This document shows positions 5,201-11,200 of a stretch of 64,000 nucleotides of DNA, piece by piece. Positions within the stretch are counted from its first letter, which is position 1; each line of letters opens with the position of its first letter. Below the pieces are notes generated by a model. It had not been told where the DNA came from and made no database searches. It was given only the letters and a program-made list of their open reading frames with translations. Location: NCBI GenBank assembly GCA_012295275.1, contig CM022666.1, positions 10,974,001-11,038,000 of the forward strand, written 5' to 3'. The DNA comes from Chrysomallon squamiferum. Lineage: Eukaryota > Animalia > Mollusca. Position numbers and translations under genes: made by a program.

Positions 5201-8200
5201 TATCAACAACTTCATTTTGAAGTTTATTCTTAATCAGCAATTTGATTTTGAAGTTTATCTGTAATAATTTTTTTTTTACTGACATTTTCTAGTATTCATT
5301 TTGCTTTAAAGAATACCTCTGAAGTTTACCTTAAATGAAACATTTTGTTTTACAATTTACCTGTAATTAAAGAGATTACTTTGAAGTTCTAATGTGTTGA
5401 CCTACCTGGTCCTGCCTCCGAGCAGTCGAATGGAATCTGCTTTTCCTCGTTCACGGCCAGGATGATGCGGTCCTGGGCGTCCATGTAGTGCTGCCACCCT
5501 CCAACCACGTGAACCTTGCGCGGGTCCACAATCTTTGGATGGAAGGGACTTCCTACAGAAACACAACACTGACCTCAGCAAACTTCACAGTGATATACCA
5601 CTTTGATTGGTTTTCACAAATTTACAATCAGAAAAGTGTATTAATACAAAATGTCTTGCAAACCTTCCTGACATTTAATTGGAAATCCTATTTTTTAAAT
5701 AGTTAACTTCATTTGCTGTCTGTGTGTGTGTGTGATTATCTTTTTGTAATGTGTGTGTGGAAGTGAGTGTGTGATTTTGTAAGCAATGTATATATAATGT
5801 TGTATTTTTATATTTATTTGCGTGCATGTGTGTGTATGTATGTGCATGCATATATTATGTGTCTCACAAAAAGTTCCAACTAACCATGAATGTTTTTGCC
5901 ATTCCATAAGACATGTACATCAAACATGCCAACCTCAACAGGGACATAAGTAACTGAATAGCGTCCATCCGGCTGTGGGTCTATGCTGCACTTAGCAATT
6001 GAGTTAGGACCTTTAACAACAAGACATCATCATAATCTTCATCAACATCACCATCATCATTACTGTTTTATTATTATTATTATTATTATTATTATTATTT
6101 CAGAATATCCTTTACAATATTTCATTTAAATATGAAACATAAATATATTACAATTTATAACCATGAAAATAAAAATAATAAAATCTCCTGTATAAGCTAG
6201 GCTGGACATATTGTGTGTGCCTGTGTAATGAAACTGTGATGAGTACAGGTTTGAACTCACCGTCCACTGATATGGATGGTTCCCCCACCATCCCGCTGGA
6301 CTCGATGTAGAACGTGGTGGGTTTGTCTTCCTCCCCGTGGTACAGCCCGTCCCCGTGAGCAGTGGGGAGGAGCCCCTCGCCTATCTCCTGGGTAAACGGA
6401 CTACCTGGAAAACATAAACATGTAAAATAAACAAAACAACCTGATTTTTTAAATTTAAAAGCAGATAAAGAAATTCACTGTGGCACAAGTTATTTCTTGA
6501 GACAGTAAGATCTAGGAAAAAATGTAATTATTTCTGTTAAAGTGTAAATAATGATGAATGAATGAATGAATGAATTAATTAATTAATCAGAAACAGCCAG
6601 ATGAATCATGACATTCACAGTAAATAATTTAAACAGAAATAAAAGAATGAATGAAATAAAATAGGAGAGAGAGAGAGAGAGAGAGAGAGAGAGAGAGAGA
6701 GAGAGAGAGAGAGAGAGAGAGAGAGAGAGAGAGAGAGAGAGAGATTATTTTAGAAAACTGAATATATTTTAACAAGTACTTTTGTTTCTAGAAAAATAAA
6801 TGTCAACAATATTTATTATTTTGTTATCTTTACCAGTAAGAAAGAAAAGGAAAAGATGAAAGTAAAAAGGAAGAAAAGAGAGACAAGTAAACATAAATGA
6901 AGAGAAAGAAATTATTATTAAAACAGCATTTTATAAACTATGTATCTCACACATTTTCTGTTAAAATCTGCAGTATATTTATCTGAATATCACACACAGT
7001 ATACTGATTACCCAAACACATTAACAGCTATACAAAGACAAAAATACAGAGAAAAGTCTAACAATTAAAATATGCAGATTCAGTTTTAATGCATACCTTT
7101 TGTTTCTAGAATAATCTCACACATTGTATTTCACATCAAACTCAGGAAACAACAAAAGTTGACAGGTAATGTTTTACCTTTATTTTTGTAAATACATAAT
7201 TCAGCCATTCACTCCTGAATGACAAAGTGTTAATGATCAGTCAAGAGCTCGTTGTACCTGTCGTACAGGTAAAACAATTGTTTTGACGTCTTGTCACATC
7301 TCATGTGAGCTCAGGAACAATAAATAATGAAAAAGTGAAAGAAAGATTTAAAAAGAAATGACTGAAAGAAAGAAATAATGAATGAATGACTGAATGAAAA
7401 ATAGAAAATAAAGAATAAATGATAGAAAGAAAAAGAAATAATAAACAAATGAATAAATAAAAGAAAGGAAAGAATGAAAAATGAATTAAAGAAAAAGTAA
7501 AACCTGAAAGAAAATCAGAGAAAAAAAGGAAATGAATGAAAGAAAAATGAATAGTACATATTTTTTCTATCATGTACAGTCCAAAGCAAACCAACATTTG
7601 TAAATAGTGATTATAAGACAAATAGTTTTATTTATCTCACTGAACTATTTAAATAAATAAATAAGTAAATAAATAAAATAAAGTATTATTAATTTCATAT
7701 ACAAAGTTTAATTTCAGTAGAGACACACACAGATATATATATATATATATATATATATATATATATATATCCTACCTACCTAAGTACCTGGAGAAGATTT
7801 AACATTTTGTAAAATTTTCTTACGTGAAGTAGCATTTGATCTTGGCAAAGTAATGTTTATTGCATTTGGTGAAGTAGCATTTGTTCCATATGAAGTAGTA
7901 TTTGTTCTTGTCAGTGTACTGAGCTGTGATGCCTGGAAACCTTTCACAAGTGGTCTGTGTTTGGTGTCTGTGCTGGGCAGTTTGACAATGTATGTCTGTC
8001 TGTCACTGTTCTTACTAACCACACTGAAACTCTGTAGAGTGTTTACTAATGGAGAAGTGTTTGGCACACAGCTGCTGTCAGAATTCACTGAAGTTGTCCT
8101 CTTTGCTGAAGGAGCTGTATTCTGAAAGACAGTACTAGTGGAAGTAGATCTGTCACTGCTGTTGACGTCTGTGTGACGTCCACTGTCAAGACTAGCATCC

Positions 8201-11200
8201 CGAGGCTCCACCTTATTAATAACTACCGGTTGCTGTCGGCCATTAGCGTCAAGCTGATTGTGCAGGACGTTGATGGTCGTAACATGTCTGAAGTTCCTGT
8301 CTAAAGTTCTAGACATGTTGCCATTCGCTGTTTGCACCGTCTGGTTGCCATAGCAACTGTTTCCATTTACATGTTGTGTATTGTAATGTAAATATTCCCC
8401 GTTCTCCTCAGACCTCTGAAGAAACCAATTCCCTGCTGGCATATTTGATTGGTTTCCTGTTGATGTTTTTAAATTATTCCCTGTATCTGAATGGTATCCT
8501 GGAAGAGATTTTAAATTATTCCCTTGAACTGAAGATTCCTCTTCGCTTTCTTCTGCACTGAAAGTCAGATGTCTTGCTCTGGACATTTGACCTGACTGAT
8601 GTCTCATGCTGGAATCCACAGTATCAGTGTCACCATGGTAACTGAGCCAGGAAGAGCTGTGGCTCTCCTGATCAGTGGACGGAGGACTGTCATATGTGAT
8701 GTTGCTATGGACACCAGAAGAAGAAACTTTGATTCGTGTTTCAAAGGATCCCCCCTGCTCGTTGGTTTTGCTGTGAGATCCTCTCACCATGACAACTGGT
8801 CCACGGAGGCTGAAACTGTCAACATCTGATGAACCCTGGCTGTCAAATGAACTGTTGAGGAAATTCTTTCCATTCACTAGAATGTTTTTTCTATTTCCAG
8901 TGCTAACCTGTGACATATAGTTAACAGGGTGAGGTGTTGTTGAAGAAACAATATTTACTGGTACACCCTGCTTGTTTTCATTTTGTCTTTCATTGTTTTC
9001 AGTCATAAAAGGAGCCAAGGGAGGAGCTACAGGTATTGATGAGTTAAGGTGAGAATTTACCTGATGATTCATTTGCAGATTTAATTGTGAAGTTAACTGA
9101 CTTTTCAGGTGTGGATCTATCTGAAGTTTTTGTGGCTCATTCTTGTTAGATCCCCTGTGAGAACTCTTCTTAACACCATTTTCCTTGTTGTCATTATAAC
9201 GATCTGCAAAATGTTTTTCTAGTTTTGCCAGAAGCTCCTTATTTGAGAAAACACTGACATGGTCTTCCCATTCGGCCTTCTTTTTCTGTTCTCGTAGACT
9301 TTTGTACTTAGCCTCCTGGTTCTCCGTATCCACCTCCCACATCCCAGAATTCCTGTTCTTAGACTTTCTTTTGTCAAGTACGGAATTCAGCTCTGAGATC
9401 AGTTTGTCATGGAGTTCAGAACCCTTATCTTTCTTCGACCGCTTGAAGAAGATTGGAAGGGGAAATAATTCATCAGGGTGCAGTTTTCTAGCTGTTCCAG
9501 AATTGAAACTGCTCTCACAAACAGGCTGTGAAGATTTTCTAAAATCTGTTGAATCATCAATGTAGCAGACATCACTGATTAACACACTTGTTCTGTTGTT
9601 GTTTTCTGAGTTGTCCAGCATTTCACTCTGCACACAAGACAAACTGGAATTGTTGTTATCAGCAGTTTCATTACTTACAACTGACTGACTGGAATTATTG
9701 TTTTCTGAATCTTCAAACGAATCCTCAGAGCTTTTTACAATCCCATCCTCACTAAACATAGAGATTTGAGAATCTTCTAAATAGTTTATATTTGTGTCCT
9801 TACCAGACTCTGTCACTCTATAATCTGAACATCTCTCAATCTTGTCATTATCAAATATTGTCACTTTAGAATCATTCAGGGATTTCACAGTCCCATCCTT
9901 TCCAAACATTGTCACCTTAGAGGAAGAATTTTCTGTGACATGCTTTTCTGCACTCATTGTTCTGTTTACACCAATCCTGCTTTCTTTTTTCTTTGATTTT
10001 CCTCCAAACTCCATGGAAACACTACAGTTTATTTCTGTCATACACTCACTGTGCTGACTCAACTCGTTTGAAACAATGGTAGCCATTTTTATTTATTTAA
10101 CATCCTTTCTTCTTCTTTTATATCAGTTTAATGTTATAATTTGTTTTTAAATATATTTTTATAGAGAAAAATTCGCAGGTAATCTGAGTTTAAACTCTGT
10201 CAACCTTGATGGATTCTTGTCCCCTGACAAAGATCAATTCTGCTGTGACATATTCACACATCGATCAACACAGTCAAGTTTGGAGAAATAATCAATATTG
10301 AAAATAAAAGCATTAATTCACAGATCAATATCCATATGAAATCACTTTCTTTTCAGGCAGATGACAATCATCATACATGTGTGTTATCAGGTATAAATTA
10401 CATGAGATATATTTCAGTTTTTACATGCTTCTGTCATAATAAAATGAAAAAACATAATAAAATAAATGTAATTTCAGAGGACATTTCCTTCACCTGTGTC
10501 CTAAATAAAAACTTTTAATCTACACAAACACATTTTGTATATTTCAAAACGTTCTCTTTTTTAATTTAATTTTTCATTTACATTCATTTCATATTACAGT
10601 CTTACACATTTTAACAAAAAAAGTTGTGTATAAAATTAAAATATGTTTTCACAAAAGCTTTAATTATTTAAATAAAATATTTAGGAATTCCAACTTGTTA
10701 AAAAAATATAGTAGTAGTATATTCTGTAGTTCTAGATAAAGTAGTAGTAATTGTTGTTGTAGTAGTAGCAACAGTAGAAATGTCAGTTGTAGTAATAGTT
10801 GTAGTATAGTAATAGTAGTAGTTATGGAGTAATAATTACAGCAGTAACAGCAAACACTGTATGAGTAATTTCACAAGAAACTAATTTAAACAGAAACTTC
10901 CAGTTGTTTATCACAGCCCCTGTGTACTTTCCCTGTGAATCTCATTAAAAACAAGAAAGAATAAAAAGAAAAGCTCCGATATTTCAAACAAGTCACTGCT
11001 ACTGCAGAAGGCAAACCAATTGATGACACAATGAAAACAACATTTTAGAGAAACTCTTGTTGAACTGTCTATAGCAAGCCCCTGTCAAGTACAGTAATTA
11101 TTTGCTTAGTGCAGGGAGTGTTGTCCAGAGAAAGGTTTTTAATCTGACCTCACTTTTTTACTTGAACAGGACATACCTTCTTTTCCTCTTTTAGTATAAA

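Follow-up and report, generated by a model that had tools for sequence, protein, structure and literature searches.

A putative alternative first coding exon in a type-2 filamin gene of Chrysomallon squamiferum and other molluscs

The filamin locus and its intronic open reading frame

We analyzed a stretch of 64,000 nucleotides from the mollusc Chrysomallon squamiferum (GCA_012295275.1, contig CM022666.1, positions 10,974,001 to 11,038,000; hereafter the window, numbered from its first letter), which carries on its minus strand a filamin gene with a long open reading frame (ORF) inside one of the introns. The rod of this gene has about 22 immunoglobulin-like (Ig) repeats by an exon count in which one exon near 33 kb is inferred and was not located; the repeats of the relatives belong to PF00630. 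A close relative (P0001) has three CH stretches, and exons in the window match its residues 113-366 at 56-76%; residues 1-112 have no match within the window, and the exon or exons encoding them probably lie beyond its edge. Three tandem CH domains are described as a mark of type-2 filamins, the Jitterbug/FLN-2 clade (10.1101/2022.06.28.497943), and we class the host gene as a type-2 (jitterbug/FLN-2-like, three-CH) filamin by the CH count in P0001. The C-terminal exon matches the filamins of named gastropods at 76-87%, of bivalves at 69-78% and of one cuttlefish at 64%.

The intron between exons 37 and 38 (Table 1) holds the only long complex ORF in the window, which comprises 768 codons on the strand of the gene (10086-7780), from an ATG at 10086 (A at -3, G at +4) to a TAG at 7782-7780, with an in-frame TAA two codons ahead of the ATG. 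Chance does not account for this ORF, because the longest ORF in shuffled sequence reached 182 amino acids for the region and 156 amino acids for the whole intron (300 shuffles each), and the probability of such a frame remaining free of stops is about 1e-23. An earlier reading of the letters of the window alone (the sequence-only reading) had proposed a 768-codon, same-strand ORF with its own ATG behind an in-frame stop, and the coordinates and shuffles confirm it.

After 7788, the frame meets a phase-1 donor, CTCCAG/GTACTT, which is in frame with the exon starting at 6404 and has a strength similar to that of donors at other exons of the gene. Conceptual joining of the nine exons from 6404 to 1984 bears out the earlier claim of an in-frame donor and a product of about 1283 amino acids: the predicted product has 1283 amino acids (141 kDa), i.e., a head of 766 amino acids followed by 517 amino acids that comprise the last strand of repeat 17 and five whole Ig repeats. 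The last five repeats are retained, as had been stated, together with that last strand of the preceding repeat; the numbering of exon 38 and the replacement of about 17 repeats agree with the exon-match count. The joined frame had also been said to recreate a GSPF motif. The Gly does arise, but it is not independent evidence, because any phase-1 exon ending in G gives a Gly at the exon-38 acceptor; the normal exon 37-38 junction of the gene reads P-SSPF.

The head has a mass of about 85 kDa, consists to 33% of Ser, Asn and Thr, and has a third-position GC content (GC3) of 0.38, compared to 0.52 in the Ig exons. The 768-amino-acid ORF matches no Pfam family at E<=1 and contains no transposase, reverse transcriptase or gag domain; the sequence-only reading had not recognized the head either. 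Its description as disordered and low in complexity agrees with a FoldIndex below zero over 77% of its length, but leaves out two motifs that are conserved across gastropods and bivalves (see below). Upstream of the head, at about 11250-11230 (-), the intron contains a textbook donor, AACAG/GTAAGT, which could end a non-coding first exon. The sequence CCAATCAG occurs six times in the window, compared to 1.4 expected; one of the copies, at 12054-12061, is in the host intron and precedes the head ATG by about 2 kb.

RNA contigs cover the ORF in all four runs analyzed (70, 44, 36 and 21%), and combined they cover 2188 of the 2299 coding bases (95%); the 111 bases without cover were given no weight. 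Contigs from X1, X3 and X4 span the ATG or the leader without a joint and reach 10412. The sole contig at the 3' end of the ORF (from X1) stops exactly at 7788, with no loose letters, and no RNA contig continues past 7788 into the stop codon. The shares of query words found in the four runs were 0.41, 0.21, 0.20 and 0.17, compared to 0.416, 0.209, 0.195 and 0.146 for the mapped pieces plus at most 0.028 for exon 38; thus, almost nothing is left for the downstream intron, which makes up 34% of the query.

Table 1. Features of the filamin gene and of the putative head exon (positions in the window)
Feature	Position	Strand	Remarks
Eight further exons	1984..6010	-	finish the last five Ig repeats and the tail; 6010-5885, 5552-5406, 5136-5032, 4665-4496, 4106-3815, 3054-2905, 2597-2430, 2234-1984
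Exon 38	6261..6404	-	shared acceptor; last strand of repeat 17 and first half of repeat 18
Host intron, exon 37 to exon 38	6405..18939	-	about 12.5 kb
Donor region	7772..7787	-	GTACTT at 7787 in frame; TAG 7782-7780; GT sites at 7779 and 7775
Coding part of the putative alternative first coding exon	7788..10086	-	766 codons and 1 base; 2299 coding bases
Motif 2	8266..8307	-	head amino acids 594-607, core HVTTINV at 601-607; predicted single beta-strand
Motif 1	9208..9456	-	about 85 amino acids, head amino acids 211-293
Leader	10087..10412	-	crossed by RNA contigs without a joint; contains the in-frame stop and nine short upstream ATG frames
Exon 37	18940..19116	-	most of Ig repeat 17; would be replaced by the head exon at the shared acceptor

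Heads and conserved motifs in other gastropods and bivalves

A search for relatives with the Ig exon as query yielded 72 proteins, and 65 of them match exon 38. Directly before exon 38, 58 of the 65 have Ig repeat 17 (Ig17), and in the other seven a non-Ig head is joined at exactly the same point (Lottia, Biomphalaria pfeifferi, Patella vulgata, Bulinus, Pinctada, Sinanodonta and Mya). The same join point is found in three more (Saccostrea, Patella caerulea and Biomphalaria glabrata; added as P0098, P0117 and P0118), and in Batillaria (P0065) the head joins one exon later. A CH-less head on C-terminal repeats is thus present in gene models of 11 gastropod or bivalve species, with the same join point in 10 of the 11. 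By Pfam, six of the nine joined relatives scanned have five Ig repeats, and incomplete models have fewer. Public models of this architecture, such as XP_062603347.1 (Saccostrea), XP_050389012.1 and KAK6195549.1 (Patella), ESO98830.1 (Lottia) and KAK0041431.1 (Biomphalaria), are labelled only "filamin-like isoform" or "hypothetical protein". RefSeq lists two of the joined models as "isoform X", a type of record that is usually based on aligned RNA.

Across molluscs, the head exons span 0.9-4.7 kb and the heads 300-1600 amino acids, an approximately five-fold range of length, and the sequence is diverse outside the motifs; the start Met and the N-termini are conserved within clades. A bivalve genomic contig (L001), with an ORF like the Mya head, has an in-frame stop, an ATG, a single open exon of about 2.1 kb and a phase-1 donor, GAAG/GTAAAT; exon 38 is not found in the 1.4 kb after this ORF. 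Many contig-derived head-only ORFs end, like that of the window, in unconserved read-through shortly past a Gly, and a few are truncated. Together, the RNA cover, the 10 models at one join point and the single-exon anatomy of L001 support the CH-less isoform with a long head that the sequence-only reading had predicted. Checked in relatives among the gastropods and bivalves, the exon is open and occupies the same place in the gene.

Some features are confined to certain types of heads. Heterobranch-type heads (P0058, P0060, P0088 and P0118) begin with or contain MGN(GQS/RLD), which we take to be a possible N-myristoylation start; the head in the window is without it. Many bivalve-type heads (P0066, P0072, P0077-P0092, P0094, P0112 and P0114-P0116) finish, directly ahead of the join, with two or three hydrophobic strands that are conserved and may form a small beta-meander. 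The idea that the end of the head is a decayed copy of the Ig17 exon was unsupported (hhalign probabilities 2.7%, with E 0.017, and 0.3%).

Motif 1 is bipartite: a conserved P-h-F-x-x-S-x-K-K-D-x-G-S, in which P-h-F..S.K.D.GS is invariant, leads into an amphipathic helix of the form EL..VL.KR, followed by a variable linker and a second helix, F.NK.LL..LE.H. The region around it is predicted to be disordered, and the motif itself to form amphipathic helices with basic residues after them. Of 7987 candidates with lengths of 183-2000 amino acids, 51 matched the motif-1 profile at E<=0.1; none of the 51 has a CH domain, and most are head-only ORFs. With a profile of 22 rows against 1.84 billion representatives, we obtained 33 matches at E<=0.001, 31 of them full-length. 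The genuine named matches are all gastropod or bivalve, a taxon range not proven closed, and the longest genuine match without a length limit has 1582 amino acids. The public models named above all contain motif 1, except the Patella vulgata model, which is shorter at its 5' end. Two matches, P0144 (a 14-residue repeat match) and P0145 (a Phytophthora tandem-repeat protein), were spurious and were dropped. A tree of motif 1 parts the named gastropods from the named bivalves; the branch of the window is too long to place.

AlphaFold predicted three unpacked helices for motif 1, two of them with pLDDT of about 80 (pTM 0.25), and a Foldseek search of this model against the PDB gave no match. In the Atlas, the nearest named cluster is LIMCH1 DUF4757 at 0.76, i.e., at noise level, and all leads are below 0.8. 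A related helix lies upstream of motif 1 in many heads: its pattern, fitted after the fact, gave 73 matches in 54 heads, compared to 0.1 expected, and the helix-plus-basic pattern, likewise fitted after the fact, is present in 50 of the 54.

Motif 2, with the conserved pattern h-T-x-I-x-h, is present as a single copy in 46 of 53 heads versus 1.5 expected, although the pattern was fitted after the fact and many of the heads are near-copies. It was also present in four of four new heads that had been found by motif 1 alone (a chance of 2-7% each) and in none of five control proteins. In bivalves it lies just before the join, and in gastropods 160-460 residues upstream of it. Matches of the motif-2 profile to a stretch of bacterial phospholipase C (E 0.03) and to midasin were taken as chance.

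Other parts of the gene also vary among relatives. A Haliotis model has approximately 133 extra residues soon after exon 38, and Mya and Ruditapes models represent another CH-less form, with a unique N-terminus of about 120 amino acids and 13 Ig repeats (these models are among P0002, P0015 and P0016). The models of relatives match differing blocks of Ig exons at 38560-28160 (-), with Haliotis best at 28.3-21.8 kb and others at 38.5-33.6 kb, a pattern suggestive of rod blocks that are used alternatively or were duplicated in tandem. The C-terminal tail QWREDI at 2040-1984 (-) is conserved as QWRDEI, QWREEL or QWREDM and is a possible C-terminal binding motif. A candidate cassette exon of 300 bases at 46382-46083 (-), ACCAG/ATTT ... 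AAAG/GTACCT, is open and phase 1 at both ends; it would encode about 100 amino acids rich in Ser, Thr, Val and Glu. The exon at 43468 follows the intron that contains this cassette, which thus also sits directly ahead of the last strand of an Ig repeat. Three CCAAT-like boxes at 45510-45440 (-), with a spacing of about 30 bases and two exact copies of CCAATCAG among them, are a possible internal promoter of another CH-less isoform.

Interpretation and alternative explanations

In our reading, the ORF is an alternative first coding exon of ancient origin in mollusc type-2 filamin; it would be spliced to exon 38 and yield a CH-less isoform of 1283 amino acids, with a tether that is predicted to be disordered and carries two conserved, putative binding motifs. 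We put the probability of this reading at about three in four. The splice from 7788 to exon 38 in Chrysomallon squamiferum, together with a start from an internal promoter, is highly probable. An internal start would transcribe the head exon, which would be spliced to exon 38 instead of exon 37, and the three CH domains and about 17 repeats would be dropped. The head would then serve as a long flexible tether with two docking sites. Motif 1 would contribute amphipathic helices that are separate from each other, have basic residues at their ends and fold on binding of a partner, and many heads would have a third such helix upstream, and the five retained repeats would act as a scaffold for membrane proteins and signalling. 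Tentatively, and at less than an even chance, we favor actin or an actin regulator as the partner of motif 1; the head would therefore swap the CH anchor for a different one. By analogy with known filamin ligands, motif 2 might dock as an additional beta-strand in the C-D groove of one of the retained Ig repeats and gate ligand binding in cis, a role that we favor, likewise at less than an even chance. The full picture of a swap-in head, whose repeated helices would grip the actin cytoskeleton while its own strand caps the groove of the last five repeats, the site opening when the tether is pulled, is unlikely as a whole.

Several observations weigh against these proposals, and those that favor a particular alternative are taken up with it. 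All four RNA runs are from one study, and the control for DNA is indirect. While the transcription of the ORF implied by the sequence-only reading is borne out in four of four runs, the junction from 7788 to 6404 appears in no contig or read of these runs. The contig end at 7788 is only suggestive, because 35 letters beside the donor were skipped as repeats in contig mapping, and because the intron and exon 38 have the same first three bases, so that a fork in the assembly should fall at 7785, three bases beyond this end. Of five RNA variant sites in the ORF, none introduces a stop, and there are no indels, which speaks for the reading; one site is silent and four change the residue, a sign of loose constraint outside the motifs. 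The leader contains nine upstream ATG frames of 1-23 codons each; they could lower the rate of translation, or some could be bypassed by a non-coding exon farther upstream. The head in the window has no clear copy of the upstream helix, and motif 2 matched no filamin ligand in the PDB.

The alternative that survives best accepts the isoform and concerns only the partner of motif 1, which would be a site of self-association or of binding to a partner other than actin (a dimerization helix, or a myosin- or membrane-protein-binding site); its chance falls not far short of even. No consistent Pfam family was found for motif 1, for 32 heads or for eight motif stretches, and neither WH2 nor any other actin-binding family was among the results; the nearest Atlas cluster is the noise-level one given above. 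The last repeat of FLN-2 is described as having no dimerization signature (PMC3143143), so that another route of self-association is conceivable. Repeated helix-plus-basic units, in turn, suit a helix in the actin cleft better, as does the best PDB sequence match in both motif-1 profile searches (7t5q_J, a CapZ-beta/N-WASP chimera, over two amphipathic stretches), although this match is not significant (E 0.32 and 0.44). The monomer predicted by AlphaFold has no packed bundle, which also argues against this alternative.

It is very unlikely that the ORF is a separate nested single-exon gene, or that its transcript is spliced after the stop, to give a head-only protein of 768 amino acids, the joined models being prediction artefacts. 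The ORF does have its own start and stop, and the two GT sites 8 and 12 bases downstream of the donor, both past the stop and both compatible with such a product, fit the consensus better than the donor at 7788. The Elysia head (1582 amino acids) is annotated as a separate gene, on a contig equal in length to the one that carries the C-terminal filamin model of Elysia, and among the unnamed contig-derived matches to motif 1 none has head and Ig repeats in one ORF; the predominance of head-only matches and the missing junction point the same way. However, the head-only ORFs mostly end in the unconserved read-through after a Gly, and in L001 a phase-1 donor lies there. Moreover, 10 models join at a single point, and no RNA contig enters the stop codon.

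A further alternative, that the ORF is an internal cassette between exons 37 and 38 of full-length filamin, is less probable still. Such a giant spacer would resemble the large, lineage-specific regions of low homology that are described as interrupting the Ig repeats of C. elegans FLN-2 (PMC3143143). Proteins above 2000 amino acids lay outside the motif-1 search; a word-based search of the whole head against proteins of 1345-3840 amino acids found no match, but was insensitive and missed known relatives of that size; and the 5' end of the RNA is not fixed. Against this stand the in-frame stop two codons before the ATG, the upstream stop in L001, and the RNA contigs that cross the ATG region without joints. 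The conserved N-termini and start Met, the absence of CH domains from all 51 motif-1 matches and the length of the longest genuine match likewise disagree with a cassette. A chance ORF, transposon remnant or assembly artefact, which would fit the failure of most of the head to align to anything and its low GC3, has a negligible probability given the stop-free length, the lack of Pfam matches and the RNA cover, and is refuted because the motifs, at this place in the gene, are conserved in both gastropods and bivalves.

Known filamin systems and the meaning of a proposed anchor replacement

That a filamin can lose its CH domains through an alternative first exon is already known, and the joined models were already in public databases. 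In the literature searched, outside of which most subscription journals lay, we found the mollusc isoform, its giant head exon and its motifs nowhere described. The comparisons below are by published description. The closest parallels to an alternative first coding exon of a type-2 filamin are Jitterbug, with the CH-less isoforms PC (four Ig repeats) and PI (16 Ig repeats) (10.1101/2020.10.13.337626), and C. elegans fln-2, with 27 isoforms from 15 promoters (PMC12966323), for which another account gives 14 of 22 isoforms without CH domains (PMC9115679). In Jitterbug PC/PI and FLN-2C/D, as in the mollusc gene, a three-CH gene also makes CH-less isoforms. These are described as consisting of Ig repeats only, whereas the mollusc form would add a non-Ig head with motifs to the last five repeats.

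Cheerio FLN90, a nine-repeat scaffold without the actin-binding domain (PMC5173320), and C. elegans FLN-1C, from an alternative start (PMC3143143), are likewise short isoforms. FLN90 had been cited by the sequence-only reading as an example and does serve as an analogue, but it is not the nearest relative, because the host gene is a type-2 filamin. FLN90 and FLN-1C belong to the other, type-1 clade, with nine Ig repeats and no long unique head in the available descriptions. In a placozoan type-2 filamin, the last two repeats are described as binding channel tails (10.1101/2022.06.28.497943), which suggests a role for the retained repeats.

Motif 1 resembles the CapZ beta tail and the C region of the WASP family in having an amphipathic helix followed by basic residues, in a disordered region and in several copies. 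Unlike in these actin-binding helices, its lead-in P-h-F..S.K.D.GS and its second helix match no Pfam or PDB family. We presume a similar likeness to WH2 and to the Ena/VASP FAB helices; Pfam gave no match to families of this kind. For filamin ligands, as for the inhibitory strand of FLNA repeat 20, published accounts describe binding as a strand in the C-D groove, with alternating hydrophobic residues (10.1101/2025.05.02.651884, PMC10164935), and the ligands are described as having no clear consensus motif (10.1101/2025.05.02.651884). Motif 2 is like such CD-face ligands and like strand A of FLNA repeat 20 in being a predicted short strand within disorder, with a pattern that may correspond to their alternating hydrophobic residues; in bivalves it is placed just ahead of the first retained repeat. 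It differs from known ligands in having matched none in the PDB; the binding is putative, and there is no strict consensus for comparison.

Since the principle of a CH-less filamin from an alternative first exon is known, the isoform is moderately surprising; it would be more so if the motifs turned out to act as a new actin anchor or a built-in gate. The common view of short filamin isoforms is that of truncations that simply lose the actin anchor. In the mollusc isoform, the anchor would be replaced by a head whose sequence drifts freely, yet two motifs have been kept since the split of gastropods and bivalves, approximately 500 million years ago. The head would be an unannotated, conserved and putative binding module that offers two short candidate peptides, and the isoform would account for several mollusc gene models that are split or labelled "hypothetical protein".

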